Assembly (NCBI GenBank): GCA_045804885.1
Contig: JBJMMH010000091.1
Location: 1-45,189, forward strand
DNA: 45,189 nucleotides
Source of the DNA: Chloroflexota bacterium
GTDB lineage: Bacteria; Chloroflexota; Limnocylindria; Limnocylindrales; CSP1-4
Direction: 5' to 3'
A model generated the notes under the pieces. It saw only the letters and a list, made by a program, of their open reading frames with translations. It did no database searches and was not told where the DNA came from. Made by a program: the position numbers and the translations under genes. Below are positions 10,276 to 36,872 of this stretch, in pieces. The stretch's first letter is position 1; every line of letters starts with the position of its first letter.

Positions 10276-10341
10276 AGCGTGCGTCCCACCGGGGTACACG
10301 GCCGCAAGGCGCCCGGTCGGGCGCCTTGCAGTGGGGTGTCG
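10276..10341 (-). promoter_or_regulatory. Direct-repeat box + -10 (YggT gene)
   Basis: CGACAC-CCCAC-TGCAAG (10325-10341), 43 nt, CACGCT (10276-10281). Confidence 0.6.
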
Positions 10342-10378
10342 GTTGAACGTGCCGGCCGAGTGCCGCCACGCGCGAGGG

Positions 10379-11170
10379 TCAGCCGACCGCCGCCGCCTCG
10401 CTGCGCGCCGAAGCGGTCGTGCTCGCAGCGGAATCCTCGGTGTCGGCGTCGGCCGCGTCGCCGCCCGAGCTTTGCCCCGGGCCTTCCACGTCGAGCAGGT
10501 AGCCGATGCCCTGGAACGTCTTGATCCGGCCCGGCTCGCCCGGCTTGGCGCCAAGCTTGCGGCGCACTCGGCTGATCCAGACCCGCAGGTACTGGAGATC
10601 GTCGCGGTACTCGGGGCCCCAGACCTTCGTGAGGAGTTCCGTGTGCAGGACGACCTTGCCGGGGTGCGTGGCGAGGTGCTGCAGGAGCAGCCACTCGGTT
10701 CGCGACAGCTGGACGAGCTCGCCGTTCCGGCGAACCATCCGACGCTCGAGGTCGATCTCGATGTCGTCGAAGGCGAGGACACCGGCGCCGGGCTCGACTC
10801 CCGACGAGCGTCGGATGACCGCGCGAACGCGGGCCGCGAGCTCGTCCGGGTGGAACGGCTTCGCGATGTAGTCGTCGGCGCCTAGGTCGAGACCCTTCGC
10901 CTTGTCGGCGGTCGCGCCCTTCGCCGTGAGCAGGATGACCGGGACCGGCCGCTGCTCGCGCAGCTGGCGCATGACCTCGATACCGTCGAGGTCGGGCATG
11001 ACGATGTCCAGCAGGACGATGTCCGGGCGGACTTCCTCCGCCTTGGCGAGGGCGTCCTCTCCCCCTGTCGCGGTCACGACGCGGAACCCCTCCTCGCTGA
11101 GGGCGATCGAGACGAGCTTTGTGATTCGAGGCTCGTCATCCGCGACGAGGACGAGTGGTTGCGTACCCAC
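10379..11170 (-). CDS. OmpR/PhoB-family (KdpE-like) response regulator
   Basis: REC domain (ADDE, LLDIVMP, LLTA, IAKPF) plus winged helix (LLTKVWGPEY...YLRVWISRVRRKL...GIGY). No adjacent kinase or kdp genes. Confidence 0.95.
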   Translation of the reverse strand: MGTQPLVLVADDEPRITKLVSIALSEEGFRVVTATGGEDALAKAEEVRPDIVLLDIVMPDLDGIEVMRQLREQRPVPVILLTAKGATADKAKGLDLGADDYIAKPFHPDELAARVRAVIRRSSGVEPGAGVLAFDDIEIDLERRMVRRNGELVQLSRTEWLLLQHLATHPGKVVLHTELLTKVWGPEYRDDLQYLRVWISRVRRKLGAKPGEPGRIKTFQGIGYLLDVEGPGQSSGGDAADADTEDSAASTTASARSEAAAVG

Positions 11171-11260
11171 ACCACACCTCCGGCTTCAGGCCAACAGAGT
11201 ACCGATTCGAACAAGGAGCGCCGGCCGGCCGCACGGGGCGCCGGCGCGCGGCGTCAACGG

Positions 11261-11491
11261 TTACGGGGCCGCGGATCCACCGCCCGGCAGCGCTGGCTGG
11301 CTCGCAGCAGGCGGGTTGATCGTCGTGTTGTTGTTGTTGGTCGTCGTCCCACCGGATCCGGGTCCGAGGGCGAAGTACCAGACGGCGATGAGCAGCACGA
11401 CGATGCCGATGATCCCGAGGATCATGCCCATGCTCGAGCTGCCGCCGGAGTCGTCGACGACGACGGTGTCGTGATCGTGTTCGTGGGTCAT
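11261..11491 (-). CDS. Small single-pass membrane protein
   Basis: MTHEHDHDTVVVDDSGGSSSMGMILGIIGIVVLLIAVWYF, then an Asn/Thr/Pro tail. AAGGAGA SD. Confidence 0.75.
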   Translation of the reverse strand: MTHEHDHDTVVVDDSGGSSSMGMILGIIGIVVLLIAVWYFALGPGSGGTTTNNNNTTINPPAASQPALPGGGSAAP

Positions 11492-11571: not shown

Positions 11572-11638
11572 ATCCTCGGTCACGCGTCGTCGCGGCCAGG
11601 GGGGCCCGACATTGCAGAACCGTTACGGGGGCATATCA
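11572..11638 (-). promoter_or_regulatory. Triple direct-repeat box + -10 (small TM gene and response regulator)
   Basis: TGATAT-GCCCC-CGTAAC-GGTTC-TGCAAT (11611-11638). GAGGAT (11572-11577) lies 44 nt from the second half-site. Confidence 0.65.
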
Positions 11639-12101: not shown

Positions 12102-14783
12102 ATGTACTTCGACGAGTTCAAGCACCAGCTGCCCGACATCGACACCGACGAGACGAACGACTGGCTGGCGTCGTTCGACCAGCTCGTCGAGCAGGAGGGC
12201 GAGAGCCGCGCCCGGTTCATCGTCTACAAGCTGCTCAAGCGGGCGCGTCAGCTCCACGTCGGGCTGCCGCCGCTGACCCAGACGCGCTACATCAACACGA
12301 TCAGCCCCGAGCAGGAGCCCTTCTTCCCGGGCGACGAGGCGATCGAGCTCCGCATCCGCCGGATCATCCGCTGGAATGCCGTCGCGATGGTCCTCCGAGC
12401 GAACAGCCGGTTCAGCGGGATTGGCGGGCATCTCGCGACCTACGCCTCCGCCGCGAGCCTCTACGAGGTGGGGTTCAACCACTTCTTCCGGGGGAAGGAC
12501 GACGGCCAGATCGGTGACCAGATCTTCTACCAGGGCCACGCAGCGCCCGGTATCTACGCCCGGGCGTTCCTCGAAGGTCGGCTGAGCGAGGGCCAGCTCG
12601 ACCACTTCCGGCGAGAGTCCGTCCCCGGCGAGGGCCTGCCGTCCTACCCCCATCCGCGGCTCATGCCGGACTTCTGGGAGTTCCCGACGGTCTCGATGGG
12701 AATAGGGCCGATCAGCGCGGTGTACCAGGCGCGGTTCAATCGCTACCTCCAGAACCGCGGCCAACTCGACACGTCAGGCTCGCGTGTGTGGGCCTTCGTC
12801 GGCGATGGTGAGACAGACGAGCCCGAAACCCTCGGGGCGCTCCACGTTGCCTCCCGGGAGGGCCTCGACAACCTGACGTTCGTCGTGAACTGCAACCTCC
12901 AGCGACTGGACGGCCCCGTGCGCGGCAACGGCAAGATCATCCAGGAGCTCGAGTCCGCGTTCCGCGGTGCCGGCTGGAACGTCATCAAGGTCATCTGGGC
13001 CCGGGAGTGGGACGAGCTGCTCGCCCGTGACGTCGACGGCGTCCTCGTCCAGAAGATGAACGACACGCTCGACGGCGAGTTCCAGAAGTACTCGGTCGCG
13101 GGCGGCGCGTACATCCGGGAGCACTTCTTCGGGCCGGATCCGCGCCTGCGCAAGCTCGTCGAGCACCTGTCCGACGACGACCTTGCCAAGCTCCGCCGCG
13201 GCGGCCACGACTACCGCAAGGTCTACGCCGCCTACAAGGCCGCCACCGAGTACAAGGGCGCGCCGACGGTGATCCTCGCCAAGACCGTCAAGGGCTGGAC
13301 GCTGGGCCCCGGCGTGGAGGCCCGCAACATCACCCACCAGGCGAAGAAGCTGTCCGAGGCCGAGCTCACGATCTTCCGGGATCGCCTCGAGCTTCCTATC
13401 CCGGACGCGAAGCTCAAGGACGCGCCGTACTACCACCCCGGCCCCGACTCCGAGGAGGTCCAGTACCTCCGCGAGCGGCGCAAGGCGCTGGGTGGCTCGA
13501 TCCCGAGACGCGTCGTCCGATCGAAGCCGCTGCCGGCGCCGGCGGAAGGCGTCGACAAGGAGTTCGCGGCCGGCTCCGACACGCCGGTCTCGACGACTAT
13601 GGTCTTCACCCGGATCCTCCGGAACCTGATCCGCGACAAGGAGCTGGGACCGCGGATCGTGCCGATCATCCCGGACGAGGCGCGGACGTTCGGCATGGAT
13701 CCGCTCTTCAAGGAGGTCGGGATCTACGCCGCCCTCGGCCAGCGCTACGAGCCGGTCGACTCCGACCTCGTGCTGAGCTACCGGGAGGCTGTCGACGGCC
13801 AGGTCCTCGAAGAGGGCATCACCGAGGCGGGCTCGATGGCCTCGCTCCAGGCGGCCGCAACCTCGTACGCGTCACTCGGCCACCCCACGATCCCGTTCTA
13901 CATCTTCTACTCGATGTTCGGGTTTCAGCGGACGGGCGACCAGATCTGGGCGCTGGGCGACGCCCGCGGCCGCGGCTTCATGATGGGCGCGACCGCCGGC
14001 CGGACGACCCTGACCGGCGAGGGTCTCCAGCACGACGACGGTCATACCCACATCCACGCCTCGACCGTCCCGAACTGCCGGCCCTACGACCCTGCCTACG
14101 CCTACGAGCTGGCGGCCATCGTCCGCGACGGCATCGAGCGGATGTATTCGAAGGGCGAGGACGTCTTCTACTACATCACGATCTACAACGAGAACTACGC
14201 CCAGCCGCCCAAGCCCGACGGAGTCGACGAGGGCATCATCCGCGGCATCTACCGGCTCCGCGAGGCGCCCGACCTGGGCCGGAAGGCGCATCGGGCCCGG
14301 CTCGTCGGATCCGGCTCGATCCTCCAGCAGGCCGTCGCCGCCCAGGAGCTCCTCGCCGAGAAGTTCGGCATCGCCGCCGAGGTCTACTCGGCGCCCTCGT
14401 TCCCGCTGCTCCGCCGAGACGCGCTCGAGGCCGAGCGCTGGAATCGGCTCCATCCGGACGAGGCGCCGCGCATCCCGTACGTCGCTCAGGTCCTCGGCCC
14501 CGACGGTGGGCCGATCATCGCCGCAACCGACTGGCTGAAGGCGCTGCCCGACATGGTCTCGCGTTGGCTCCCGCCGTACTACGTCTCGCTGGGAACGGAC
14601 GGCTTCGGCCGCAGCGACACCCGCGAGGCGCTCCGGTCGCTGTTCGAGATCGACGCGCCGCACATTGCCGCGGCGACGCTCGCCGAGCTGGCCCGGTGTG
14701 CCGCGATGCCGGCGCCGAAAGCCGCCGCCGGCATCCGCGAGCGGGGGATCGAGCCAGACAAGCTGGACCCGGTCGCGCTCTAG
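12102..14783 (+). CDS. aceE: Pyruvate dehydrogenase E1, homodimeric type
   Basis: Motifs YINTI, GGHLATYAS, FPTVSMG, GDGETDE (TPP), NLQRLDGPVRGN, PDEARTFG, YSMFGFQR, GEGLQH, GTDGFGRSD. Confidence 0.97.
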   Translation: MYFDEFKHQLPDIDTDETNDWLASFDQLVEQEGESRARFIVYKLLKRARQLHVGLPPLTQTRYINTISPEQEPFFPGDEAIELRIRRIIRWNAVAMVLRANSRFSGIGGHLATYASAASLYEVGFNHFFRGKDDGQIGDQIFYQGHAAPGIYARAFLEGRLSEGQLDHFRRESVPGEGLPSYPHPRLMPDFWEFPTVSMGIGPISAVYQARFNRYLQNRGQLDTSGSRVWAFVGDGETDEPETLGALHVASREGLDNLTFVVNCNLQRLDGPVRGNGKIIQELESAFRGAGWNVIKVIWAREWDELLARDVDGVLVQKMNDTLDGEFQKYSVAGGAYIREHFFGPDPRLRKLVEHLSDDDLAKLRRGGHDYRKVYAAYKAATEYKGAPTVILAKTVKGWTLGPGVEARNITHQAKKLSEAELTIFRDRLELPIPDAKLKDAPYYHPGPDSEEVQYLRERRKALGGSIPRRVVRSKPLPAPAEGVDKEFAAGSDTPVSTTMVFTRILRNLIRDKELGPRIVPIIPDEARTFGMDPLFKEVGIYAALGQRYEPVDSDLVLSYREAVDGQVLEEGITEAGSMASLQAAATSYASLGHPTIPFYIFYSMFGFQRTGDQIWALGDARGRGFMMGATAGRTTLTGEGLQHDDGHTHIHASTVPNCRPYDPAYAYELAAIVRDGIERMYSKGEDVFYYITIYNENYAQPPKPDGVDEGIIRGIYRLREAPDLGRKAHRARLVGSGSILQQAVAAQELLAEKFGIAAEVYSAPSFPLLRRDALEAERWNRLHPDEAPRIPYVAQVLGPDGGPIIAATDWLKALPDMVSRWLPPYYVSLGTDGFGRSDTREALRSLFEIDAPHIAAATLAELARCAAMPAPKAAAGIRERGIEPDKLDPVAL

Positions 14784-14835: not shown

Positions 14836-15546
14836 CTATCGGATGCGCCGCCCGGCGAGGGTTCCGACGCGGCGCCAGGACGTCAGGACGACGCCGCCCA
14901 CAACGGTCGTCAGCGCGACGATCGCGGCGATCAGGCCGCTGTTGTCAGCAGCCGAGGCGCTCGCGACTGTGCCGGTGTCGGTCGGCGGAGGCGTGATGTT
15001 CCCGGCCGCGGCCGCGTCGCCACCGGCGGTGCCGCCGACGCCGAGGTCCGTGCCGTTGTCGGTCGGCGGGGGAGGCGGTTCCTCAGCCGGCTCTTCCGCC
15101 GCGCAGTCGACGACGAAGCTGCGGACGCCGTTGCTGCCGTCGGGCGGGTACTCGTCGTCCCAGACGATGTTGTAGTTGCCGTTCGGGACCGTCAGCGAGC
15201 CGGAGTCGGGGACGCGGAGCTTGCCGTCGGCGTCGGTCGGGCCGCCCTGGCCCTTGAGGACCGTGGTGCCGTCGAGCGGGGCCGCGTTCCACTCCTTGAC
15301 CTTCCAGCCGACGACGTCGGCCTGGATGCCGAGATCGAACTCGAAGAAGAAGTTGCAGACGTGGGCCTGGCCGTCGACGACCATCTCCTGGCCGCTGTCG
15401 GCGTCGATGATCGCGACGGTGCCGTACTTGTCTCCGTCGCTGGCCGCGGCGTGACCGGCGCCGAAGACGGCGAGGACCAGCGCGGCAGGGGCGGCCGCAA
15501 GCGCGAGCCGCCGGATTCTGGGTCGGGACCTTGGCAATGCGGACAT
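14836..15546 (-). CDS. Secreted/surface protein with signal peptide and C-terminal anchor
   Basis: Arg-rich n-region, hydrophobic stretch and AxA-type site, acidic domain, Pro/Gly linker, then PPTDTG, a TM helix and a basic tail. Confidence 0.75.
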   Translation of the reverse strand: MSALPRSRPRIRRLALAAAPAALVLAVFGAGHAAASDGDKYGTVAIIDADSGQEMVVDGQAHVCNFFFEFDLGIQADVVGWKVKEWNAAPLDGTTVLKGQGGPTDADGKLRVPDSGSLTVPNGNYNIVWDDEYPPDGSNGVRSFVVDCAAEEPAEEPPPPPTDNGTDLGVGGTAGGDAAAAGNITPPPTDTGTVASASAADNSGLIAAIVALTTVVGGVVLTSWRRVGTLAGRRIR

Positions 15547-15578: not shown

Positions 15579-15644
15579 AATCTCGGCGAAACCGGCTGCT
15601 ATCAGGCCAACGGGAATGGCCCTCGACCTTGCACGCGTGGAACA
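15579..15644 (-). promoter_or_regulatory. Direct-repeat box + -10 (secreted protein)
   Basis: TGTTCC-ACGCG-TGCAAG (15628-15644), 43 nt, GAGATT (15579-15584). Confidence 0.55.
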
Positions 15645-15655: not shown

Positions 15656-15721
15656 CGACACGCCCCTGATACGGGGCACCCGGCAAATCGCGGGCGGTCG
15701 CCTCGGAGCCGTCCGTACCGT
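15656..15721 (+). promoter_or_regulatory. Direct-repeat box + -10 (glycine-zipper gene)
   Basis: CGACAC-GCCCC-TGATAC (15656-15672), 43 nt, TACCGT (15716-15721). Confidence 0.65.
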
Positions 15722-15778: not shown

Positions 15779-16231
15779 ATGGGACACCACGACATGGATC
15801 CGGGTCACGGCGAGCCGGGCCACGTCCACGACGAGAACTGGAACCGCACGACGACCGGCGCCGGGTATGACACGACGCTTGGCGACCGGACTGCCGTCGA
15901 GAACGAGGAAGGCGGCAAGGAGGCTCTCGGCGCTGGGGCGGGTGCGCTCGCCGGCGCCGGCGCCGGTATGGCGGTCGGCGGTCCTCCCGGAGCGGTCGTC
16001 GGCGGCGCGATCGGCGCGGTCGGCGGCGCCGTCGCCGGTGAGGCGACCGAAGGCGACGACGAGGCCGGCTCCGGTGCCGGTGGACTCGCGGGTGGCGTTG
16101 GCGGCGCGGTCGTCGGTGGCGCGGTGGCGGGTCCTCCGGGCGCGGTCGTCGGCGGCGCGGTCGGCGCGGCCGGCGGCGCCGGCGCGGGCGACCAGGCGGA
16201 AGAAGAGACCGAGGAGAACGACGCGGTCTAG
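15779..16231 (+). CDS. Glycine-zipper membrane protein with internal duplication
   Basis: Two GxxxG-rich repeats, each containing GPPGAVVGGA.GA.GGA, with acidic linkers. AAGGAG SD. Confidence 0.8.
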   Translation: MGHHDMDPGHGEPGHVHDENWNRTTTGAGYDTTLGDRTAVENEEGGKEALGAGAGALAGAGAGMAVGGPPGAVVGGAIGAVGGAVAGEATEGDDEAGSGAGGLAGGVGGAVVGGAVAGPPGAVVGGAVGAAGGAGAGDQAEEETEENDAV

Positions 16232-17546: not shown

Positions 17547-18737
17547 TCAGGCGCTGCGGAGCGCCCGGCGGAGGATGATCCAGGCGACGGCGGTGTACCC
17601 GACGACCTCGCCGACGAGGATCCAGACGGACGTGATCGCCTGGGTCGAGCCCCGCAGCATCACGTCGCCGATCAATTGGATCCCGTTCGTGACGGGCAGC
17701 AGCGCCGTCAGCGAGCGAACGGGCTCGGTGAACTCGTCCGTGCCCAGGACAAATCCGGAGAAGAACACCGACGCCAGCAGCAGCAGGAGCGACAGCTGGA
17801 CCGCCTGCCGCTCCGAGTCGGAGACTGCGGCGATGAGCATCCCCAGGCCAAGCGACGCGAGCACGAGGAGCGCCACGACACCGGCGAGCGCCGGCCAGTC
17901 GCCGAGCATTGGCACGCCGAGGCCGAAGATCAGCAGCGCGAACGTCGCGGCCGCGATCACGGCGGTGAGGAGCCCGAACGCGACGACCTTGCCGATGACC
18001 AGTTCGCCGGTCCGGATCGGCGACACGTGGAAGAGCTCGAAGAGTCCCGTCGTCCGCTCGCGAATGACCGACAGCGCGATCAGTGTCACGGCCATGTGCT
18101 GGAGGACCAGCGCGAGCACGGCCGTCCCGAAGAACTGCACGACGTTCGGCTGGGCCGGAGCTATGTTGTGGATCTCGGCCTTCGTGGGGGCGGCGACGAC
18201 CGACGGCGGGATCTGCGCGGCGTCGGCCGCGCCCTCGCTCAGTGCGTACGACTGGCCCTCCTGGACGATCCGCTCGACGATGATGCGATTGACCTCGCGC
18301 TCGAGGGCCCGGGCGAGGAATGTCGTGTAGTTCTGCTCGACGGGGTCGGTCACGTTCACTCGAACCTGGATGGCCGACTGCTGGCCGGACTTGAACTTCT
18401 GCTCGACGTCGCCGGGGGCGACGAGGACGACATCGACCTGGCGGTCGGCGAGCCGCTGCTCCGCGGACGCCTCGTCGGTGGTGACTTCCGTCACCTCGAG
18501 CCCCGCGCCCGAGATCTCCGCGTAGTCACTGACGTCCGTCGGCAGGCCGGAATTCGACGGGATGACGACGATCGTGTTGAGCGGCCGGCGGTAGCCGCTG
18601 TAGCCGGCGCCGAAGATCGCCAGGATCAGGAACGGCCCAAGGATCAGGCTGAAGAGCGCACCGGGCCGCCGAACGACCTCGACGAGCTCCTTCCCGACGA
18701 ACGCCAGGATCCTCGTGAGCGCCTTGACGAGCGTCAT
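17547..18737 (-). CDS. ABC-2 type transporter permease
   Basis: N-terminal TM, large extracellular loop, RER..G.FE....P motif, further TM helices, FFSGF. Confidence 0.92.
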   Translation of the reverse strand: MTLVKALTRILAFVGKELVEVVRRPGALFSLILGPFLILAIFGAGYSGYRRPLNTIVVIPSNSGLPTDVSDYAEISGAGLEVTEVTTDEASAEQRLADRQVDVVLVAPGDVEQKFKSGQQSAIQVRVNVTDPVEQNYTTFLARALEREVNRIIVERIVQEGQSYALSEGAADAAQIPPSVVAAPTKAEIHNIAPAQPNVVQFFGTAVLALVLQHMAVTLIALSVIRERTTGLFELFHVSPIRTGELVIGKVVAFGLLTAVIAAATFALLIFGLGVPMLGDWPALAGVVALLVLASLGLGMLIAAVSDSERQAVQLSLLLLLASVFFSGFVLGTDEFTEPVRSLTALLPVTNGIQLIGDVMLRGSTQAITSVWILVGEVVGYTAVAWIILRRALRSA

Positions 18738-26652: not shown

Positions 26653-26658
26653 AACGGC

Positions 26659-27505: not shown

Positions 27506-28470
27506 CCGCGCGCGCGCGCCTCTACGACGCGCGCGGCGTAGACCGGGACGTTCCGATCGCCGAGATCAGGGCGAGCAAGGCCGACGATCGGACCCTGCTC
27601 TGGATCGACGTCGACGACCGCGGCGATGACCAGATCGACGAGGTCGCGAAGGCCCTCGAGCTCGAGCCGACCATCGTCCGCCAGCTGGGTCGCGAACGAC
27701 GGCGTCCGCGAATCATTCGCCAGCCCAACCGCATCGCCATGACCCTGATCGCGGTCGAAGAGGACGACACGGGAGCGCTCGTTCTCAGGGATCTCGACCT
27801 CGTCGCGGGCCGGAACCTCATCGTGACGGTCCACGACGGCCCCCTTGCCGCGGTCGAGGAGTTCCAGCAGCAGCTCAGCGGCGAACGCGAGCTTGGCCTG
27901 CTCGACGCCGGCGCGTTCCTGACCGGTTTGATCGACTCGGTCCTGGCCGGCTACCTCCGCGAAGTCGAGGCGGTCGAGCGCGAGATCGACAAGCTGGACG
28001 AGATCGCCCTGCGGATGGACAGGGGCGACGACGACTTCCTGTCGATGGTGGTGACGCTCCGCCACCGGATCGCGCTCCTCCGCCGGTCCCTCGCGCCGAA
28101 CCGGGAAGCGGTCACGCCGCTCGTTCGTCCTGACTTCGAAGTCGCGAAGGGCGATATCGTCCGGCCGTGGCCCGGCCTCGTCGATCGGCTTGAGCAGACG
28201 ATCTCGGCCGTCGAGAATGCCCGCGAGCTGCTCGTGGGCTCGTTCGACATCTACCTGGGCCGGGCGGCCCACCGCTCGAATGCCGTCATGAAGACGCTGA
28301 CGATCATCTCGGCCATCGCCCTGCCGGCCGTCGTCCTCGCCGGCGTCATGGGCATGAACTTCCACCTCGAGTTCTTCGATACGCCCGAGAACTTCTACAT
28401 CGTGCTCATGCTGATGGCCTTGTTCGCATCGGCGATCCTGCTAATCGCCCGCTGGCGACACTGGGTCTGA
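27502..28470 (+). CDS. corA: CorA-family divalent cation transporter
   Basis: LWID, N.VMKTLT, GMN signature (GVMGMNF) and two C-terminal TM helices. Confidence 0.92.
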   Translation: MTARARLYDARGVDRDVPIAEIRASKADDRTLLWIDVDDRGDDQIDEVAKALELEPTIVRQLGRERRRPRIIRQPNRIAMTLIAVEEDDTGALVLRDLDLVAGRNLIVTVHDGPLAAVEEFQQQLSGERELGLLDAGAFLTGLIDSVLAGYLREVEAVEREIDKLDEIALRMDRGDDDFLSMVVTLRHRIALLRRSLAPNREAVTPLVRPDFEVAKGDIVRPWPGLVDRLEQTISAVENARELLVGSFDIYLGRAAHRSNAVMKTLTIISAIALPAVVLAGVMGMNFHLEFFDTPENFYIVLMLMALFASAILLIARWRHWV

Positions 28471-28473: not shown

Positions 28474-31400
28474 TCAGACCTCCTCGGCCATCACACGCAG
28501 CGTGAACGCGAACTCGGACCCGCCGTCCGGCAGCGGGCTCGCCCAGATCCGGCCGCCCATCGCCCGGATCAGCCGGGCGCAGACGAACAGGCCGATGCCC
28601 GCGCCAGCGGCGGTCGCCGCTGTGCCGCGCGACCTGAAGAAGAGCTCGAAGACGCGGTCGACCTCTTCCTCCGGGAAGCCTGGACCGTCGTCGATGACGC
28701 GAACCGTGACCTCCTCGGCGTCCGAGTCGACGTCCACCCGGACGGTCGTCCCGACGCCGCCGTATTTCGCGGCGTTCGAGAGCAGGTTCCGGACGACCTG
28801 CTCGACATAGGTCGGGTCGGCGATCGCCGTCGGCAACCCGGGCCGCATGTTGAGCTCGAACGTCACGCCCGGCCACCGTGCCCGCTCCGAGCGGATCACG
28901 GCCGGGAGGATCCGCTGGACGAGAACCGGCTCTGTGCCGACGTCCCCCTCGTCCTCGCCAAAGCGGGTCATTGCGATGACGTCCTCGACGAGGCGGTGGA
29001 GCCGCTCCGATTCGACGACGATGTCGGAGAAGATCTCCCGGCGGGTTTCGTCGGGAAGCTGGTCCCCGTCCCTGGAGAGGACCTTCGAGCCGGCGTAGAT
29101 CGTGGTCACGGGCGTTCGCAGCTCGTGTGACAGAACGCCGATGAAGGTGTCGCGTATCGCCTGCGCCTTGCGCCCCGCCGTGACGTCGCGAAGCATCACG
29201 ATCGTCTCCGGCGGTGGCTCGCCGCCGTCCCCGTCGTCGGGCTCCCGGACGACGGGGTAGGTGCTCAGCTCGATCCAACGCTCCTCGGGAGCGCGTGCCC
29301 GGAGCTCGACCGGAGCGCCGATCTCGCCGAGGCGCGGCGCCTCGCCTTCCGGGTCGTCGACCTGCTCGAGGATCTCCTCGTACGTCTGCTCGTGGACGTC
29401 GGGGAACATCGCCTCGGCGGCCGGGTTGGAAAGGCTGATCCGGCCGTCCGCGTCGCACACGAAGATGCCATCCCCGATCGCCCGGATCACCGCGTTGAGC
29501 TCCGCCGCGCGAGCGTGCTCCGACTCGGCCAGCCGGCGAAGGTTGGCCTGGGCCTCGAGCCGATCGCCGACGTCGCGCGCGACGGCCACGATCCGGCCGA
29601 CCTCGCCGGCCGGCGTCACGTGCTGGAGCAGGACCTCGACAGGGACCGTGCGGCCGTCCTTGTGGCGGTACGACAGCGTCGCGGTCCGAGCGTCCATCGT
29701 CCCAGTCACGAGCGGCTCGACGAGGCCACGCAGGCCGATCGCGTCGAGCTCGACGACGACCTTCGTCGCGTCGGCCCCGACGAGATCCTCGGCGGCGTAT
29801 CCCAGCTGGTCCTGGACACCCTGGTTGACGTACGAGATCCGGAGCGTCGCCGGGTCGAAGACCACCACCGCATCGAGCGTCGCGTCGAGCACCCGCTTGT
29901 AGCGGACGGCCTCCCGGAACGCCTTCGCGTTGGAGATCGCGAGCGCGACCCGGGCGGCGAGGTTCTCGGCGAAGCCGACATCCTCCGGTCCGAACCGGCG
30001 GCCGCTCTCGGCGGCGACGAGCGTGATCGCCCCGAGGGTCTGATCGCCGGCGACGATCGGGACGCAGAGCCAGGATCGGAGCCCCAGCCAGCGAATGATC
30101 TCGAGCTGCTCTTCATCGACCGCGGCGGCCGCAAGCATCTCGTCGGTGACCTCGAAGTCCATGTCCGGCTGCCCCGTCCGAAGGACGTAGGCGGTGCCTC
30201 GCGGCGCATCGGGGTCCGGCGGGTAGCGTTCCGCGAGCTCCAGCGCCTTCGCCACCTTCGCCGGGTCGTCGTGAGCCACCGCCAAACGACGTGGCACACC
30301 CTTGTCGTCGAGGACGTCGACCGCGACCCAGTCGGCGATCGTTGGCACGACGGTCTCGGCTACGCGCCGGATCGTATCCTCGTAGTCGAGCGACGATGCG
30401 AAGACCTCCGACGCTGTCGTGAGAATCCGCCGGTTCTCGCGGGCGAGCCGGACGGCCGAGATGTCGATGATCGTGGCGACGCCGGCGACGACGCCGCCGT
30501 CGCGGTCGAGCACAGGACCGGCCCGCTTGGCGACCCAGGTGCGGCTGCCATCGGGTCGTTCGAGCTCGATCTCCTGGTAGGGCACGGTCTCACCACGGAC
30601 CGCCCGGGCCAGTGGCCAGTCCTCGGGCTGCAGCTCGCGGCCGCTCTCGTCGTATCCGCGATACGCCTCGCCGCCGGCGATCCGGTGTAGAAGCTCGGCC
30701 TTGGGAATCCGGACGATCTCCTCGATGCGGTCGTTCGCGAGGACGATGCGGCCGGTCGGAGCTTCCGCGATCAGGAGGCCCTCGGGGGCCTGCTGGAGGA
30801 GCTCCTCGAGCCGCGCCCGCTCGGCCTCGAGGTCACCGACGAGCCGCTCCCGGATGTTCGTCAGCGCCACGCGGGCGAGAGCCTGCGCGCACAAGTCGGC
30901 GTATGCGCCGATATGGTTGCGTTCGACCTCGGTGAACGCGCGGGTCTCGGCGAACGACAGGCCCAGCGCGCCAAAGGTGATGCCGTCCGCGATGAGCGGC
31001 ACAGCGCATACCGAGCGGTTGGGGGACGACGCGATGACCGACGCTCCGAGCTCGTCGTCGGCCTCCGCCTCGCGCAAATCGCTCAGCCAGACGGGTGTCG
31101 CCGTCCGGGTCGCGACTGCGAGCGGCAGCCGCGAATCAAGGGGGATCGACCCCATCGACGCAACCGAATCCGGGTCGTAGCCGACGGCCTCGACGACGGA
31201 CAGGCCGGGCTCACCGAGGATCGCCATGACGCTGCCACTCGCCCCGAACGCCTCTCGGCCCTCCCGGACGATCAGGGCGACGACGCCGTCCCGCGTGGAC
31301 TCCGTAGCGAGCTCGCGGGTGACGCGCTGCAGCCGTTCGAGGCGCTCTGCCGCGCCCTCAGCTGCCCGCCGCGCTTCCTGCTCAGCGGCGTGCACCTGGG

Positions 31401-32742
31401 CGTTCGAGATCGCAAGGGCGGCGCGCTGCGCGAGCTCCGCGGTGACGTCGAGATCGGCGCTCGTGTACGCCCGATCCGGACCAACCCCGAAGAACATCGC
31501 GCCGATAGCCTCACCCTTGGCGAGCAGCGGCTGGACGATCATGCTCCGGGCGTCGATGGCCGTGACGATGGCGGCAAGGTCGTCGACCTCGCCGGTCGCC
31601 CGACGGAGATCGACGGGGTCGTTCAGGTTCTCGACCAGGACGGGCCGATGGGTCCGGACGACGCGAGCCGCCGGCTCCCTCGAGGCGGCCCCGATCGGGA
31701 GGTCGCCGATCGGGTCGAGGATTGCCTGCCGGACCGCATCGGCGGCGACCGCGGCCACAGGCCTGAGGGAGCCATCGGGATCGACGAGGTCGATCAGGCA
31801 CCAATCGGCAAGGTCCGGAATCCCAACTGCGGCTGCCGCCTCGATCGTCCCGGCGAGATCGCTCGATTCGTCGAGCCGAAGGCCGGCGTCGGCGACGAGG
31901 CGAGCCAGCTCGGCTGCGCGCTTCCGGCTCGAGCGCTCTTCATCGATGTCCGTGGCGGTTCCGATCCAGCCCTCGAGGACGCCGCCTTCACGGCACCGCG
32001 GGACGATCCGGACGACATGCCAGCGGTACGTGCCATCGTGGCGGCGGAGGCGGACCGTCGCGTCGAGAGACTCCTCCGCCGACTGCGCCGTCGACCAGGC
32101 CGCCTCGAGCTCGGCTCGGTCCTCGCCGTGGACGTGATCCAAGGACGGGAATCTGCCACTGGCCGCGATCGCGCCCGTGTAGGCGAACCAGCGGCCGTTC
32201 GCCGCTGCCAGGTGCCCCTCGGGATCCGACAGCCAGGCTACGACGGGCAGCGCCTCGACGATCTCACGGTAGCGGCGCTCGCCCGCGAGGCTGGCCTGCC
32301 CGGCCTCGATCTGCGAGGTCATCTCGTGGAACGTCGAGACCACGAACCGCTCGCCGTGCGGCGCGCCGTCCACAAGCCGCCCACGGACCAGGGACCAGCG
32401 CATGACGCCGGTGTGGCGATGCCGAAAGCCGACGACGAGCGGGTCCGGACGGTCGCCCGCGAGCACCCGCCGGCCAGGGAGGCGAGCCGGATCGAGCGCT
32501 GCCCCGGACTCGTCGACGATGTCGAACCGATCCAGCGTCTCCTGCGGAGAGGCCGCGAGCATCTCCTCGGGGCTCGCCCAGCCGCACAGCTCCGCCGCCT
32601 CCTGGTTCGCGAACACGACTCGGAGGTTCGTGTCCTGGACGGTGATGCCCGCGTCGATCGCCTCGAGGATCCAGGCCATCGGCTCGCCGAGCAACATCGG
32701 CGCTCCAGTCGCGTCCTGTGGCTCGACGACTCGCTGGCCCAC
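28474..32742 (-). CDS. Large cytoplasmic multi-PAS/GAF sensor histidine kinase
   Basis: About five PAS and three GAF segments. SHELRTP H-box; intact NLLSNAAKY, DDGPG, FELF and GAGIGL boxes. No TM helix seen. Confidence 0.95.
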   Translation of the reverse strand: MGQRVVEPQDATGAPMLLGEPMAWILEAIDAGITVQDTNLRVVFANQEAAELCGWASPEEMLAASPQETLDRFDIVDESGAALDPARLPGRRVLAGDRPDPLVVGFRHRHTGVMRWSLVRGRLVDGAPHGERFVVSTFHEMTSQIEAGQASLAGERRYREIVEALPVVAWLSDPEGHLAAANGRWFAYTGAIAASGRFPSLDHVHGEDRAELEAAWSTAQSAEESLDATVRLRRHDGTYRWHVVRIVPRCREGGVLEGWIGTATDIDEERSSRKRAAELARLVADAGLRLDESSDLAGTIEAAAAVGIPDLADWCLIDLVDPDGSLRPVAAVAADAVRQAILDPIGDLPIGAASREPAARVVRTHRPVLVENLNDPVDLRRATGEVDDLAAIVTAIDARSMIVQPLLAKGEAIGAMFFGVGPDRAYTSADLDVTAELAQRAALAISNAQVHAAEQEARRAAEGAAERLERLQRVTRELATESTRDGVVALIVREGREAFGASGSVMAILGEPGLSVVEAVGYDPDSVASMGSIPLDSRLPLAVATRTATPVWLSDLREAEADDELGASVIASSPNRSVCAVPLIADGITFGALGLSFAETRAFTEVERNHIGAYADLCAQALARVALTNIRERLVGDLEAERARLEELLQQAPEGLLIAEAPTGRIVLANDRIEEIVRIPKAELLHRIAGGEAYRGYDESGRELQPEDWPLARAVRGETVPYQEIELERPDGSRTWVAKRAGPVLDRDGGVVAGVATIIDISAVRLARENRRILTTASEVFASSLDYEDTIRRVAETVVPTIADWVAVDVLDDKGVPRRLAVAHDDPAKVAKALELAERYPPDPDAPRGTAYVLRTGQPDMDFEVTDEMLAAAAVDEEQLEIIRWLGLRSWLCVPIVAGDQTLGAITLVAAESGRRFGPEDVGFAENLAARVALAISNAKAFREAVRYKRVLDATLDAVVVFDPATLRISYVNQGVQDQLGYAAEDLVGADATKVVVELDAIGLRGLVEPLVTGTMDARTATLSYRHKDGRTVPVEVLLQHVTPAGEVGRIVAVARDVGDRLEAQANLRRLAESEHARAAELNAVIRAIGDGIFVCDADGRISLSNPAAEAMFPDVHEQTYEEILEQVDDPEGEAPRLGEIGAPVELRARAPEERWIELSTYPVVREPDDGDGGEPPPETIVMLRDVTAGRKAQAIRDTFIGVLSHELRTPVTTIYAGSKVLSRDGDQLPDETRREIFSDIVVESERLHRLVEDVIAMTRFGEDEGDVGTEPVLVQRILPAVIRSERARWPGVTFELNMRPGLPTAIADPTYVEQVVRNLLSNAAKYGGVGTTVRVDVDSDAEEVTVRVIDDGPGFPEEEVDRVFELFFRSRGTAATAAGAGIGLFVCARLIRAMGGRIWASPLPDGGSEFAFTLRVMAEEV

Positions 32743-32838: not shown

Positions 32839-32855
32839 CTTGCAGCGGCGTTACA
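32839..32855 (-). promoter_or_regulatory. Direct-repeat box upstream of the large kinase
   Basis: TGTAAC-GCCGC-TGCAAG; its first 13 nt are identical to the 22560 box. Nearest good -10, TAGCCT (32785-32790), is 48 nt away. Confidence 0.65.
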
Positions 32856-34105: not shown

Positions 34106-34112
34106 GGCCGCA

Positions 34113-36800
34113 TCACGGTTTCGGTTTGGCCGTCGGCGCAGGGTCGTTGCCGCCGCCGCCACCGCCGCCGTCGCCTCCGCCGCCGGGGGGCGGGCTGCCG
34201 TGGCCCGGCGGTTCCTCCTTCGGCGGCTGCGGCGCCGGCTTCGGCTTGGGCTTGGGCTTGTAGCAGGGCCCGACGATCGTTCCGCCCCACGATCGCTTGC
34301 TCCAGAAATACGCCGTCCGCGAGTCGTGCGGGCCCCTGACGCCTGGACCCCGGCGTGCTCGCACCAGCCAGTTCTCGACGTCGCCGTCCCACGCTCGCGG
34401 TCCCAGCTCCGCCTTGAGCGGGTCGACCCGCCAGCCGCCGCAGGCTGCCCTGTAGAGGAGCCCGTCCCGGTCGATCGCGTGTCGTCCACCGGGCTGGGTG
34501 CCGCTGATGAACAGCTCCTTGACCCGGTCGCGCGTCCACGGCCCGACCCGCCCACCGGACCACGCATCGATCGTCGCCGACACGATGCCCTTGGGTTTCG
34601 CGAAATTCGTGATCGGCGTCTTGGCCGTCACGTCGCGGACGAAGGAGCGCCAGAGCGGCGCCGCGGCGGTCAGCGAGATCGCCGGCTTCCGGGAAACCGG
34701 GTTGGAGTGATCGCTGTTGCCGAGCCAGACCCCGACCGCGAGTGCCGGCGCCGCGGCGTCCTTCGGCGGCGGGAGATAGCCGTACGTCGCCAGGTCGCGC
34801 GCCTCGTTCGCCGTTCCCGTCTTGACTGCGGCCGGCCGGTGCTCCCCTTTGGGGCCGTTTCGGAGCTCCAGGGCGGCCGACCAGATCGGGTTCTGGCGGG
34901 GGTCGGTGTTGCCGGCGAGGATGTTCGTAACGAGGTAGGCCGCCTGCGGACTCACGGCCTGGACCGCCTCGGGATCCGGTGCCTTGTAGATCGTCCTGCC
35001 TGACGAATCGCGGACCTCGAGGATCATCCGCGTGGGAACGTGGGCGCCGCCATTGGCGAGCGCGCCGTAGGCCGACGTGAGGTCGAGCGGCCGCACTTCG
35101 ACCGTCCCGAGTGCTCCCGCAAGCCCGGCCTGGAGATAGGCGTCGCGACCGCCATGGAAGCGGATGCCCATCGCCTGGGCGCGGTCGGCGACGGCCTCGC
35201 TGCCGGTCCGGGCGAGCGCCCGGATCGCCGGAATGTTGAGCGAGTACTGAAGGGCCTTTCGGACGAGGACGGGACCGCGCTCGAGCTGGTCGGCGTCGCG
35301 TGGCGCCCAGTCCTCTCGGCGGTTGAACTCCGTCGTGATATCGAGGAGGAGGCTGCCCGGTGTGAGCTTGCCCGTGTCGAAGGCGCTCGCATACAGGATC
35401 GGCTTCCAGGCAGACCCGGGCTGACGCTCGCCGTCGCCGGCGACGTCGTACTTGGGTTCGAACTTGCGGGTGGCGAGCGATTCTTCGTAGTAGCCCGCGC
35501 TGCCGGCGTACGCGACGACGTCACCGGTGCGGTAGTCGAGGGCTACGAGCGAGCCGTTGTGGAGGTCCTTCCCGCGCAGCGCATTGATCCAGCGCCGGTC
35601 GGAGGAGCCGATCTTCAAGCTCCTGAGGAGCCGTGCGCTCGACGCGCGCTTGAGATTCGGTGCGATAACCGCGGCCTTCAGCCAGCGTTCGGCCTGTTGC
35701 TGCATCTTCCAGTCGAGCGTCGTGATCACCGTGTAGCCGCCCGTCTCGATTGGTGGCCCGTCGCCGACGATCGCCTCGAGCTGGCGGCGGACCTGCCACG
35801 TGAAATGTGGCGCCTGGAAGGCGATCGGCTGGTCTCCGGCGAGGACGACCGGCTCTGCGAGCGCCGCCGCGAGGGCCGCCGGCGAGAGCGTCGTCCAGCG
35901 CGACGTCGAGAGGTTCTGGAGGATGTAGTTCCGGCGCGCGACCGGCGGCGCGGACGCCGGCACGACGAGCTTGCCGTCGGCATCGCGGACGGCGTACCGG
36001 TAGGGGTCGAGGGTGGATGGCGACTTGGGCAGACCCGCCAGCAACGTCGCCTGGGCGGGCGTCAGATCGGCGAGGTCGCCGACGCCGAAGTAGATCTGGG
36101 CGGCGGCGGCGATGCCGTAGGCGTCGTGGCCGTAGAAGATCTGATTGAGGTAGGCCGTGACGATCTGCTCCTTGCCGGCCTCGCCCGGGAACATGTCGGT
36201 GACGCGCGACGCCTGGAGCAGCTCCTTGGCCTTGCGGATGTAGCGGTCCGCGCCATCGGCCGTCACGTTCTCCGGCAGCAGCCGGGCCCGTACGAGCTGC
36301 TGCGTGATCGTGGACGCGCCTCTCTCGCTGTCGCCGCTCGCGTTCTGGGCGATCGCCGACACGATGGCGCCCGGATCGAACCCGGCGTTCTGCCAGAAGG
36401 TCCGGTCCTCGGCGGTCGTCGTTGCGTCGAGGACGAGCTTGGGCACGTCGTCGTACGCGACGACGCGGCGCTTCTCCTGCTGGAACAGGCCCAGTTGGAC
36501 GGTCCCGGTTCGATCGTAGACGACCGTCGGCTGGGAGAAGGTGAGCTTGCCGAGGGTTGAGGGATCCGGCAGGTCCGTCGACAGGACGGCAACGGCGGCA
36601 GTCGCAGCGAGTCCGAGGCTGCCGGCGGCGACGACGATGATGACGAGCGGGATCAGCAGGAGGACGAGGAGAATCCGGGGGCCGTTCCGCCCGGGGCGCT
36701 CGTGACGTGACGCCCGGCGCCGTACGATCGTCGCCCAGCTGGAGCCGGCGGCAAGGCGCCGCGCATAGCGCGACCGGGCATAGCCCTGACGGGTATACAC
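34113..36800 (-). CDS. Class A penicillin-binding protein (transglycosylase-transpeptidase)
   Basis: TG motifs AEDRTF, GASTITQQL, RKAKE, YLN. TP motifs SAWK, SLN, KTG. N-terminal TM and Pro/Gly tail. Probable leaderless GTG at 36800. Confidence 0.95.
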   Translation of the reverse strand: MYTRQGYARSRYARRLAAGSSWATIVRRRASRHERPGRNGPRILLVLLLIPLVIIVVAAGSLGLAATAAVAVLSTDLPDPSTLGKLTFSQPTVVYDRTGTVQLGLFQQEKRRVVAYDDVPKLVLDATTTAEDRTFWQNAGFDPGAIVSAIAQNASGDSERGASTITQQLVRARLLPENVTADGADRYIRKAKELLQASRVTDMFPGEAGKEQIVTAYLNQIFYGHDAYGIAAAAQIYFGVGDLADLTPAQATLLAGLPKSPSTLDPYRYAVRDADGKLVVPASAPPVARRNYILQNLSTSRWTTLSPAALAAALAEPVVLAGDQPIAFQAPHFTWQVRRQLEAIVGDGPPIETGGYTVITTLDWKMQQQAERWLKAAVIAPNLKRASSARLLRSLKIGSSDRRWINALRGKDLHNGSLVALDYRTGDVVAYAGSAGYYEESLATRKFEPKYDVAGDGERQPGSAWKPILYASAFDTGKLTPGSLLLDITTEFNRREDWAPRDADQLERGPVLVRKALQYSLNIPAIRALARTGSEAVADRAQAMGIRFHGGRDAYLQAGLAGALGTVEVRPLDLTSAYGALANGGAHVPTRMILEVRDSSGRTIYKAPDPEAVQAVSPQAAYLVTNILAGNTDPRQNPIWSAALELRNGPKGEHRPAAVKTGTANEARDLATYGYLPPPKDAAAPALAVGVWLGNSDHSNPVSRKPAISLTAAAPLWRSFVRDVTAKTPITNFAKPKGIVSATIDAWSGGRVGPWTRDRVKELFISGTQPGGRHAIDRDGLLYRAACGGWRVDPLKAELGPRAWDGDVENWLVRARRGPGVRGPHDSRTAYFWSKRSWGGTIVGPCYKPKPKPKPAPQPPKEEPPGHGSPPPGGGGDGGGGGGGNDPAPTAKPKP

Positions 36801-36806
36801 CGCGGG

Positions 36807-36872
36807 ATGGTGAACCCGGGCGTGTCGCCGGCAGCCGCCGGCGGCGAACCTCGACATTGCAGCCGTCTTTCA
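36807..36872 (-). promoter_or_regulatory. Direct-repeat box + -10 (PBP, leaderless)
   Basis: TGAAAG-ACGGC-TGCAAT (36856-36872), 43 nt, CACCAT (36807-36812), 6 nt, in-frame GTG. Confidence 0.7.

Follow-up and report, generated by a model that had tools for sequence, protein, structure and literature searches.

A conserved direct repeat most likely marks a stress regulon of an orphan OmpR/PhoB-family response regulator in a soil Limnocylindrales bacterium

We analysed a 45,189-nt stretch of DNA (the window) from an uncultured soil Limnocylindrales MAG (Chloroflexota; 83% complete), whose 3.13-Mb genome is 70% G+C and 92% coding. The window contains an orphan response regulator, the operon to which it belongs and a series of direct-repeat boxes. 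The features of the regulator operon are as follows, with box scores from a position weight matrix (PWM).

10379–11170, minus strand: orphan OmpR/PhoB-family response regulator, 263 aa (Pfam Response_reg and Trans_reg_C).
11261–11491, minus strand: membrane protein gene, 76 aa (our own gene call; hydrophobic stretch in the translation).
11611–11638, minus strand: triple half-site box of the regulator operon, made up of boxes 11622–11638 and 11611–11627 (14.8 and 20.2 bits; −10 GAGGAT at 11572–11577).

The 76-aa protein matched no Pfam family, and its gene is the first of the box-driven operon that includes the regulator. Judged by its domains, the regulator is an OmpR/PhoB-family protein. All its NCBIfam matches were below the cut-offs (in brackets): RpaB 215 (330), MtrA 205 (300), PhoB 195 (296), YycF 187 (340) and KdpE 175 (325). 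The region of its phospho-acceptor Asp aligns with MtrA, and the nearest solved structure to its DNA-binding domain is KdpE 3zq7. The residues matching KdpE Y191, R193, R200 and T215 are kept, and Arg stands in place of H198; the roles of these residues are those described in passages of PMC3264566. The recognition helix is invariant among orthologues down to 56% identity.

The sequence-only reading had listed 20 boxes between 10.3 and 36.9 kb, and all of them were present where it had placed them. Site 11622 was real, but it forms part of the triple half-site, whose best box is 11611–11627. The other 19 are listed below together with one RNA candidate; for minus-strand sites the quoted box start is the low coordinate.

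10325–10341, minus strand: box of the YGGT-like gene 9834–10226 (11.9 bits; −10 at 10276–10281).
15628–15644, minus strand: box of the gene for a 236-aa secreted or anchored protein, 14836–15546 (4.2 bits; −10 at 15579–15584).
15656–15672, plus strand: box of the glycine-zipper protein gene 15779–16231 (Pfam Gly-zipper; 4.3 bits; −10 TACCGT at 15716–15721).
20060–20076, minus strand: box of the ABC-2 exporter operon (18734–19918, 17547–18737; 3.7 bits; −10 at 20011–20016).
20125–20141, plus strand: box of the leaderless topoisomerase IB gene (start 20197; Pfam Topoisom_I; 16.8 bits; −10 at 20185–20190).
22526–22542, minus strand: box of the cytoplasmic PAS histidine kinase 21354–22442 (Pfam PAS, HisKA, HATPase_c; 9.8 bits; −10 at 22477–22482).
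22560–22576, plus strand: box of the hemerythrin gene 22665–23123 (Pfam Hemerythrin; 19.3 bits; −10 at 22619–22624).
24078–24094, minus strand: box of the gene for a 68-aa highly charged protein, 23782–23988 (5.9 bits; −10 at 24029–24034).
24105–24121, plus strand: box of the gene for a 132-aa protein, 24221–24619 (22.1 bits; −10 TACGGT at 24165–24170).
24893–24909, minus strand: box of a conserved non-coding RNA candidate (21.7 bits; −10 TACGAT at 24843–24848).
24700–24836, minus strand: candidate sRNA with two hairpins, 24763–24789 and 24716–24749 (ends estimated).
25077–25093, minus strand: marginal box, target unassigned (9.3 bits; −10-like hexamer at 25028–25033).
25527–25543, minus strand: box of the leaderless 117-aa gene 25118–25471 (1.4 bits; −10 TAGGCT at 25479–25484).
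26026–26042, minus strand: degenerate box of the Transgly_assoc (GlsB/YeaQ/YmgE-type) gene 25638–25919 (2.7 bits; −10 at 25977–25982).
26178–26194, plus strand: box of the 80-aa gene 26289–26531 (17.0 bits; −10 at 26239–26244).
26588–26604, plus strand: box of a second non-coding RNA candidate, ~26660–26850 (20.1 bits; −10 CACACT at 26647–26652).
27173–27189, minus strand: box of the 59-aa lipoprotein-like ORF 26867–27046 (19.0 bits; −10 TACGGT at 27124–27129).
27236–27252, plus strand: weak box ahead of a small ORF and the CorA gene 27502–28470 (3.9 bits).
32839–32855, minus strand: box of the 1422-aa multi-PAS/GAF histidine kinase 28474–32742 (20.5 bits; gap 48 to TAGCCT).
36856–36872, minus strand: box of the leaderless class A penicillin-binding protein gene (start 36800; Pfam Transgly and Transpeptidase; 19.7 bits; −10 at 36807–36812).

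The consensus box is a 17-bp direct repeat, TGYNAY-N5-TGCAAY, read toward the gene. The pattern TGYNAY-Nx-TGYNAY at x = 5 gave 18 matches genome-wide, six of them within the 10–37 kb block, and 14 of the 18 were intergenic despite the 92% coding density. All other spacings from 0 to 15 gave no match in the window and 5–14 each in the genome. At ≥14 bits the PWM found 48 intergenic and 24 coding matches, where coding density predicts 2.2 intergenic ones. The expectation of the sequence-only reading that the motif exceeds shuffled sequence was borne out: 60, 46 and 36 matches were observed at ≥12, ≥14 and ≥16 bits with a PWM refined on the same genome as was scanned, compared with means of 12.8, 4.1 and 0.75 in dinucleotide-shuffled intergenic DNA. 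The orientation of the boxes was also biased; of 62 intergenic matches at ≥12 bits, 50 pointed toward the next gene, nine away and three had no gene.

We observed that the proposed gap of about 43 nt to a NANNNT hexamer is a property of the motif throughout the genome. This hexamer stood at gap 42–44 in 27 of the 48 PWM-picked intergenic sites (expected 2.7; binomial p ~1e-21) and was absent there in the other 21; the peak recurred outside the window (18/37, p ~1e-12), and a minor second peak was seen at gap 34 (5/48). A short distance from −10 to start codon was first noticed for topoisomerase IB, gene 25471 and the penicillin-binding protein. At six of 58 sites the predicted start codon lies exactly 55 nt past the box end, including the GTG starts behind boxes 20125 and 36856. 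These six genes are thus leaderless, which puts the box at about −72 to −56. The −10 of box promoters begins with T in only 8/30 cases, which fits weak, activator-dependent promoters; the hexamers most enriched in intergenic DNA genome-wide are TANNNT. Promoters of this genome generally lack a −35, so its absence does not set the box promoters apart.

The supposition of a 20-site regulon confined to this block held for the sites and failed for the extent: the regulon comprises roughly 50 sites genome-wide, about a quarter of them packed into the 27-kb block. Within the window, no intergenic box of ≥10 bits lies outside 10.3–36.9 kb, as had been noted for five promoters checked outside the block. 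By PWM score, ten of the 20 sites are strong (14.8–22.1 bits), three marginal (9.3–11.9) and seven weak (1.4–5.9), and most of the low scorers are conserved within the genus as footprints together with their −10. Box and −10 were conserved in 6/7 other aligned rows for 10325 (which overlaps a hairpin, 10306–10327, that follows the regulator gene), in one relative for 15656, in two for 20060, with divergent flanks, and in four for 24105. The core of box 24078 was nearly invariant across four relatives, again between divergent flanks. In G143, the one relative available for it, the orthologue of box 15628 scores 15.3 bits at gap 43, and G143 alone has the half-sites of 25077, at one syntenic place. 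Box 20125 was kept in two relatives, 22526 clearly in one and partly in a second, and 26178 in the closest relatives only. The 31 aligned rows of box 25527 displayed a conserved tGcC...ctgCAAcg, ~42 variable nt, TA.g.T, 6–7 nt and ATG; the 30 rows of box 26026 contained a strong orthologous box (consensus CTG.CAg.c.GtTG.aA.G) with a −10 at fixed distance. Box 32839 is real with an irregular gap, and three relatives have strong boxes likewise lacking NANNNT at gap 40–46. For the ORF downstream of box 27173, a Cys-containing signal peptide and a ribosome site of the GGAGG type were noted. Box 27236, kept in the single relative compared, is the least certain of the 20; its proposed −10 overlaps the predicted start codon at 27299. 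As a separate observation, RNA contigs cover gene 25638–25919, and RNA contig 24967–25103 crosses box 25077.

Two boxes precede candidate small RNAs. No credible ORF was found downstream of box 24893, whose orthologues score 20.9–21.9 bits at gap 43–44. The second hairpin of the candidate sRNA there has a C-rich CCCCCUC loop, and a 10-nt core recurs in 25/30 genus loci. RNAalifold on 20 sequences gave 24 pairs, five with compensatory changes; Rfam gave no match. No good ORF lies downstream of box 26588 either; across five aligned rows, box and −10 were kept along with a long stem and a terminator-like hairpin (26815–26843), with compensatory changes.

Across 24 genomes of this genus we counted 145 matches to the strict pattern, compared with 13 to the reversed control (139 and 12 when the unpublished G130 is left out), and clustering of boxes around the regulator was also seen in G143, G133, G124 and G125. 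Counting against the explanation favoured below, three genomes of the same class with an 80–81% identical orthologue had only 2–3 strict matches against one in the control, and the best-scoring box of the genome (C145:11239, 25.2 bits), next to another kinase–regulator operon, has its −10-like hexamer at gap 21, not 43. Other Chloroflexota lacking the orthologue showed modest enrichment of similar patterns (e.g. 39 vs 16 in G005), so the half-site is not unique to this regulator.

Among the 12 Trans_reg_C genes of the genome, only 10379–11170 has a strong, correctly oriented upstream box; the other 11 have no forward box of ≥12 bits. A forward box of ≥13 bits was found upstream of 9/13 orthologues at ≥73% identity, of 1/5 homologues at 50–61% and of 1/58 at 30–49%, and no reverse-strand match occurred upstream of the orthologues. 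The triple repeat also recurs upstream of orthologues, including a 57%-identical one in a Dehalococcoidia MAG, where it lies 135–146 nt upstream. This regulator, the candidate of the sequence-only reading, is most likely the box-binding activator. We consider it probable, with real room for doubt, that the boxes are sites for a head-to-tail dimer of its phosphorylated form, activating from upstream; an OmpR/PhoB-family regulator centred near −64 agrees with every computational test run. Less likely, at perhaps a third of that weight, a different winged-helix regulator binds these activator sites and 10379–11170 is only a regulon member. Eleven other Trans_reg_C genes are available, e.g. the C145 kinase–regulator pair or a 984-aa ORF on C163, and an upstream box speaks for membership, not identity, as both kinases are boxed too. 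Moreover, the best-scoring box of the genome is situated in the divergent region beside the C145 operon, and G079, of another genus in the family, retains an orthologue at 82% identity, its recognition helix unchanged, while showing no motif excess (strict 0 vs 2 in the control, looser 6 vs 6; only 196 nt upstream of the orthologue assembled). However, the C145 box faces away from that operon; none of the 11 genes has its own forward box; the box tracks orthologues of 10379–11170 and not distant homologues; and box density is highest around this gene in several species. Its KdpE-like domain also suits a 6-N5-6 site at −72 to −50, as described for KdpE in passages of PMC3264566.

An artefact of degenerate hexamers picked by eye was refuted by the tests run and is exceedingly improbable: seven of the 20 sites have chance-level scores and the expected distance was admittedly used in picking, but the excess at one particular spacing, the bias toward intergenic DNA, the shuffles, the blind spacing peak, the conservation in 24 genomes and the footprints of weak sites all oppose it. 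Hardly more credible is a sigma-54 promoter, whose −24/−12 consensus is TGGCAC-N5-TTGCA. The likeness of TGYCAC-N5-TGCA is superficial; the half-site Gs are 11 bp apart, not 12, the second G of GG is usually Y, and the −10 at 42–44 nt and leaderless starts at 55 nt put the start far downstream. Moreover, neither rpoN nor Sigma54_DBD was found in the 83%-complete genome, with a control positive in 4/14 known genomes. It is also quite unlikely that the box is read like an UP element, by RNA polymerase, an alternative sigma or an accessory factor. The very rigid distance to the −10, the fairly A+T-rich box in a 70% G+C genome and the lack of further conserved sequence between box and −10 would fit this, but UP elements usually lie at about −40 to −60, closer than the box. 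In addition, 1009 intergenic TANNNT hexamers genome-wide displayed no conservation 44–50 nt upstream (a scan of up to 50 nt, covering the promoter-proximal half-site only), and a dedicated factor would suit both the regulon-like set of genes and the presence of a box ahead of a regulator gene. Passages of PMC4168254 and PMC3264566 describe hexamers repeated directly at an 11-bp period as the hallmark of OmpR/PhoB dimers.

Under activation by 10379–11170, the box at about −72 to −56 would serve a promoter that lacks a −35 and whose −10 is degenerate (NANNNT). There the bound regulator would recruit RNA polymerase as KdpE does at kdpFABC, perhaps through the contact with alpha-CTD that the sequence-only reading proposed. 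The KdpE site, TTTATA-N5-TTTACA at −72 to −50, shares this 6-N5-6 geometry, and MtrA has its whiI-a site at −69 to −53 (in passages of PMC3264566 and PMC5650626, respectively). The earlier comparison with WalR was right about the family, but the nearest solved DNA-binding domain is that of KdpE; no kdp genes were found in the 83%-complete genome. At the triple half-site the regulator would switch on its own operon, presumably upon a stress signal, and positive feedback would arise from its probable activation of the two PAS-type histidine kinases. Other targets among the ~50 promoters would include those of envelope enzymes and transporters, of small proteins of stress type, of topoisomerase IB and of the two candidate small RNAs.

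All the 20 boxes that the sequence-only reading had claimed between 10.3 and 36.9 kb of the window (hereafter the block) were found where it had placed them; each is a 17-bp direct repeat, TGYNAY-N5-TGCAAY, read toward the downstream gene and named here by its start coordinate. The claim of a regulon of 20 sites in this block had to be corrected to one of genome-wide extent. We searched the genome with the pattern TGYNAY-Nx-TGYNAY, which makes no use of a weight matrix, and observed 18 matches at x = 5, 14 of them intergenic and six inside the block. Among the spacers from 0 to 15 tried, an excess was seen at 5 alone, and the other spacers gave no matches in the window. The resulting hexamer direct repeat has a period of 11 bp, within the 10–11 bp of OmpR/PhoB-type sites.

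A weight matrix of the box (PWM), refined under a false-discovery limit, converged to cTGyaAcGccgcTGCAAT. At 14 bits or more it gave 48 intergenic and 24 coding matches, where 2.2 intergenic ones were predicted from the coding density; 12 matches, coding ones counted, were inside the block. In the shuffle control that had been proposed (20 Altschul–Erickson dinucleotide shuffles of intergenic DNA), the mean was 4.1 and the maximum 8, against 46 observed. As the PWM was trained on sequences of this same genome, the PWM-free pattern and the relatives serve as independent checks. Across 24 further genomes of the genus, the strict pattern occurred 145 times, compared with 13 for the reversed control (139 compared with 12 on leaving out one unpublished genome, G130). 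The loci of four congeners (G143, G133, G124 and G125) exhibited the same clustering beside the regulator gene and the same 42–45 nt gaps from box to -10. These data confirm and extend the original observation.

The predicted spacing peak was also evident. With the PWM matches taken blind to the downstream sequence, the -10 hexamer NANNNT stood at a gap of 42, 43 or 44 nt in 27 of the 48 sites (2.7 expected, p~1e-21), and in 18 of the 37 sites outside the window, which the first reading had not seen (p~1e-12). A mirror-image control on the opposite side of the box was flat, without a peak, while five sites formed a minor peak at a gap of 34 nt, one helical turn closer. Most boxes (50 of 62 PWM matches) face the next gene. 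Leaderless starts are evident in this genome, and in 6 of 58 sites the predicted start codon lay exactly 55 nt from the box end (42–43 + 6 + 6–7 nt). These six leaderless genes indicate that the -10 is functional and that the box spans about -72 to -56, in agreement with the proposed site centred near -64. With the transcription starts deduced in this way, the box takes the position typical of class I activators, whose sites are centred beyond the -35 region, near -61 or whole helical turns further out.

We did not find any general -35 or third element conserved between the box and the -10. The most intergenic-enriched hexamers of the genome are of the form TANNNT (TAGACT being enriched 54-fold), and no -35 signal was detected upstream of its 1009 intergenic TANNNT hexamers; therefore, the missing -35 is ordinary in this genome. 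The box promoters are set apart by a weaker -10, where the first base is T in only 8 of 30.

When scored by the PWM, ten of the 20 listed sites were strong, three were marginal and seven did no better than chance; footprinting in relatives rescued most of the low-scoring ones. In the region 23989–24220, both divergent boxes and both -10s were identity islands across five species, and so were boxes 20060 and 20125 with their -10s in three species. Thirty aligned rows of the region preceding the Transgly_assoc gene have in common a strong box, a ribosome site and a -10 whose distance is fixed, the window copy of the box being the degenerate one among them. Similarly, 31 rows (some genomes being included twice) shared a box, ∼42 variable nt, TANNNT, 6–7 nt and ATG upstream of 25118–25471. 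Boxes 10325, 15628, 15656 and 22526 were kept in the one to seven relatives available. Box 25077 is supported by one syntenic match and box 27236 by one relative, and the -10 of the latter collides with a predicted start codon. Two sites stood in part: the box at 32839 is strong and conserved, but its downstream part is irregular, and a box is present at 11622, but it is made of three half-sites instead of two.

A conserved CGTTGCCG / CGTAGTCG element was also seen in the 30 aligned rows, ∼16 nt downstream of the Transgly_assoc box (26003–26010, minus strand); it contains the reverse complement of the half-site core and is not general among box promoters. After the regulator gene, a hairpin kept in relatives (10306–10327, minus strand) overlaps the downstream half-site of box 10325. 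Inside aceE, a 16-bit PWM match, TGGAAYGCNGTSGCGAT (12372–12388, plus strand), recurs in the same gene of many relatives without a -10, and we rejected it as a false positive retained by coding constraint.

The genes around the boxes were called with our own codon-usage caller, and their families were assigned by Pfam.

Genes called in the 9.8–37 kb region of the window
YGGT-like protein gene
10379–11170, minus strand, OmpR-type regulator gene, preceded by a gene for a 76-aa membrane protein
DUF2255 and AceE genes
Gene for a 236-aa secreted protein
Glycine-zipper protein gene
GT4 glycosyltransferase gene
ABC-2 exporter
Topoisomerase IB gene
Cytoplasmic PAS histidine kinase gene
Hemerythrin gene
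Double-zinc-ribbon protein gene
Several genes for 60–130-aa proteins without a family
Transgly_assoc protein gene
CorA gene
Gene for a 1422-aa PAS/GAF kinase
AI-2E transporter gene
Class A PBP gene

The caller missed a 59-aa lipoprotein-like ORF at 26867–27046 (minus strand; signal peptide with Cys, good ribosome site), which is served by box 27173, and called a weak opposite-strand ORF, 26889–27164, instead. When ten of the small regulon proteins were scanned leniently with Pfam, only sub-threshold hints appeared (e.g. YtxH, E 0.011). We scanned 20 genes downstream of boxes outside the window for families; among their products are BON-domain, SRPBCC, DUF6582, IscA-like, ACT and BNR proteins, an MFS transporter, a GT2, a beta-lactamase-family serine hydrolase and a GntR-aminotransferase regulator, while eight of the proteins have no family. 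Taken with the hemerythrin, glycine-zipper, Transgly_assoc and highly charged small proteins of the block, these products resemble the sets of general-stress and envelope proteins known from other bacteria.

No ORF was found downstream of the strong box 24893. The stretch 24700–24836 (minus strand) that follows it is a candidate small RNA, with conservation above that of every neighbouring gene, a 10-nt core in 25 of 30 genus loci and two conserved hairpins with compensatory changes in 5 of 24 pairs. The loop of the second hairpin is a C-rich CCCCCUC, which could pair with Shine-Dalgarno sequences. A second candidate non-coding RNA lies downstream of box 26588 (about 26660–26850, plus strand). 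Compensatory changes are seen in its long stem, a terminator-like hairpin occupies 26815–26843, and the element is kept only in the closest relatives. Neither candidate matched an Rfam family at gathering scores, and the region 24600–26900 gave only sub-threshold, chance-level matches. The best of these, to sX13 (23.7 bits, the gathering score being 50), probably arose by chance and falls on a perfect hairpin at 24944–25032 (minus strand), ∼100 nt downstream of 25118–25471 and directly after the marginal box 25077.

Next to consider is the protein that recognizes the boxes. The orphan regulator (10379–11170) has receiver and winged-helix domains scoring above their cut-offs (PF00072, 108.8 bits; PF00486, 72.4 bits). 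The phospho-acceptor Asp and the conserved Thr/Lys of its receiver are present: the LLD, LTAK and KPF motifs align with those of MtrA and are invariant in seven orthologues. By these features it is a normal phosphorylatable response regulator. Its recognition helix is likewise unchanged in all seven, the most distant of which has 56% identity. The sequence-only reading had proposed this protein as the obvious candidate, and the proposal was strengthened by the finding that, among the 12 genes of the genome with a winged-helix DNA-binding domain (Trans_reg_C), its gene alone has a strong forward box upstream. In public genomes, we looked for forward boxes of at least 13 bits within 600 nt upstream of its homologues, and found them for 9 of 13 at 73% identity or more (reverse-strand matches, 0), 1 of 5 at 50–61% (reverse, 1) and 1 of 58 at 30–49% (reverse, 3).

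Hence, the regulator probably binds the boxes and activates from them. That another winged-helix protein does the binding we regard as unlikely, and the remaining readings as very unlikely. Several observations speak against the assignment to this regulator. The phylogenetic profile of motif against regulator is positive in the genus and weakly positive in the sister family, whose genomes with an orthologue have only two to three strict matches, and is contradicted by a genome of the same family but another genus (G079), where an orthologue of 82% identity has the same helix and yet there is no motif excess. Related patterns are mildly enriched in Chloroflexota without an orthologue, and the top box of the genome adjoins a different two-component operon. 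This box (contig C145, 11239–11255, plus strand; 25.2 bits) has a 61-aa gene on one side and a divergent kinase-regulator operon on the other; TACAGT, the -10-like hexamer nearest to it, stands at a gap of 21, two helical turns short of the usual distance. In several other Chloroflexota without the orthologue (e.g. G005, G048, G060 and G099), the strict pattern is at ∼2-fold of its reversed control, an enrichment that points to related regulators, with similar half-sites, in other parts of the phylum.

Other readings of the motif were rejected or found no support. Sigma-54 promoters have GG and GC 12 bp apart; the boxes have a period of 11 bp with the second G not conserved, and no Sigma54_DBD (rpoN) was found in the 83%-complete genome. 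A Pho regulon was rejected for lack of a box at pstS: upstream of the pst-phoU operon on contig C216, the intergenic region contains no PWM match of at least 8 bits. Pho boxes take the place of the -35, about three periods downstream of where the present boxes lie. A true KdpDE system was not supported, with a KdpE score below the NCBIfam cut-off and, within the 83% of the genome covered, no match to KdpA and a best KdpD match of 20.8 bits, below the cut-off of 26.1.

None of the NCBIfam equivalog cut-offs was reached by the regulator, and we compared it with the known systems described in the cited papers. Hexamer direct repeats of 11-bp period characterize the sites of OmpR/PhoB dimers, as in the WalR box TGTWAH-N5-TGTWAH (PMC4168254). 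The regulator belongs to this family, and its closest solved DNA-binding domain is that of KdpE (3zq7, E 1.2e-15), with the residues aligned to KdpE Y191, R193, R200 and T215 kept. The box geometry also equals that of the KdpE site at kdpFABC, whose footprint, -72 to -50, has two hexamers with a 5-bp spacer (PMC3264566). However, the regulator scores only 175 on NCBIfam KdpE (cut-off 325), has no adjacent kinase, no KdpA found and no KdpD above cut-off, and carries Arg in place of KdpE H198, the position of PhoB R201 (PMC3264566). The half-sites also differ (TGYNAY/TGCAAY here, TTTAYA for KdpE; PMC3264566), and there are ∼50 targets here, whereas KdpE has essentially one operon.

The likeness to WalR held for the 6-N5-6 head-to-tail layout, but not for the closest DNA-binding domain, which is that of KdpE. 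Several boxes match TGTWAH-N5-TGTWAH literally (e.g. TGTAAC-N5-TGTGAT-type; PMC4168254), and the targets include a PBP and glycosyltransferases. On the other hand, the YycF score is 187 (cut-off 340), the third box base is often C, no WalK-type kinase lies beside the regulator, and the box position relative to the -10 is fixed. The best NCBIfam match was to cyanobacterial RpaB, at 215 bits against a cut-off of 330. The large regulon of RpaB was likewise deduced from where its direct repeats are positioned, and upstream sites, centred at -66 to -45, activate (PMC6525291). At sites that overlap the start, RpaB acts as a repressor as well, whereas nearly all the boxes here are at one position, and its HLR1 sites are two octamers with 2 nt between and a 10-bp period (10.1101/443713). 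MtrA of Actinomycetota shares the layout of 6-bp direct repeats 5 nt apart, its whiI-a site lying at -69 to -53 (PMC5650626), and 2gwr is the top full-length PDB match of the regulator. The MtrA score is 205 (cut-off 300), no MtrB or LpqB is adjacent, and the recognition helix is unlike its counterparts in MtrA, RegX3 and PhoP. PhoB has a similar half-site, TGTCAY, with the 11-bp period (PMC3264566), and the regulator scores 195 bits against its cut-off of 296.

The original interpretation is thus supported in silico, with its scope corrected to a genome-wide regulon and a KdpE-like regulator. The mechanism belongs to a type already described; the novelty lies in the lineage, in how large the regulon is and what it contains, in its packing into an island and in the two candidate small RNAs. 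We tentatively imagine an abundant, as yet uncultured soil genus of Limnocylindrales in which the general stress or desiccation response might be run not by an alternative sigma factor but by a KdpE-derived orphan regulator that lost kdp, acting through one box at -64 on ∼50 promoters and encoded within a 27-kb regulon island, where two box-driven PAS/GAF kinases would give positive feedback and two small RNAs would be commanded, one with an anti-Shine-Dalgarno-like C-rich loop.

Limnocylindria are Chloroflexota common in soil and freshwater, of which no cultured representative is known, and a full-text literature search found no paper on their transcription factors. The data offer a first promoter grammar for the group (TANNNT -10, no -35, frequent leaderless starts) and a single large, conserved regulon for which one named regulator, kinases and two small RNAs are candidates; a KdpE-like DNA-binding domain would here serve a broad regulon in a genome without kdp genes found. 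This regulon is approachable in vitro without culture and can be followed in soil metatranscriptomes.

The genome, of which the window is contig C91, has 3.13 Mb in 235 contigs, 70.5% G+C, 83% completeness and 92% coding density. The closest public homologues of the regulator (73–97% identity) are from MAGs labelled Candidatus Limnocylindrales or Chloroflexia, and 13 soil metagenome runs of four studies contain 67–81% of the words sampled from one stretch of the block. Logan contigs from four soil metatranscriptomes, which show neither starts nor strands and in which we gave uncovered stretches no evidential weight, cover parts of the block; they are a weak hint that its genes are transcribed, as presence in RNA libraries and not as a mapping of starts. 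The Transgly_assoc gene was covered in all four runs (25633–25959). Contigs of three runs end at 25958/25959, 11–12 nt short of the start predicted for this gene, other contigs end within coding regions, and two contigs carry the sequencing adapter directly at 25633, 5 nt beyond its stop codon.
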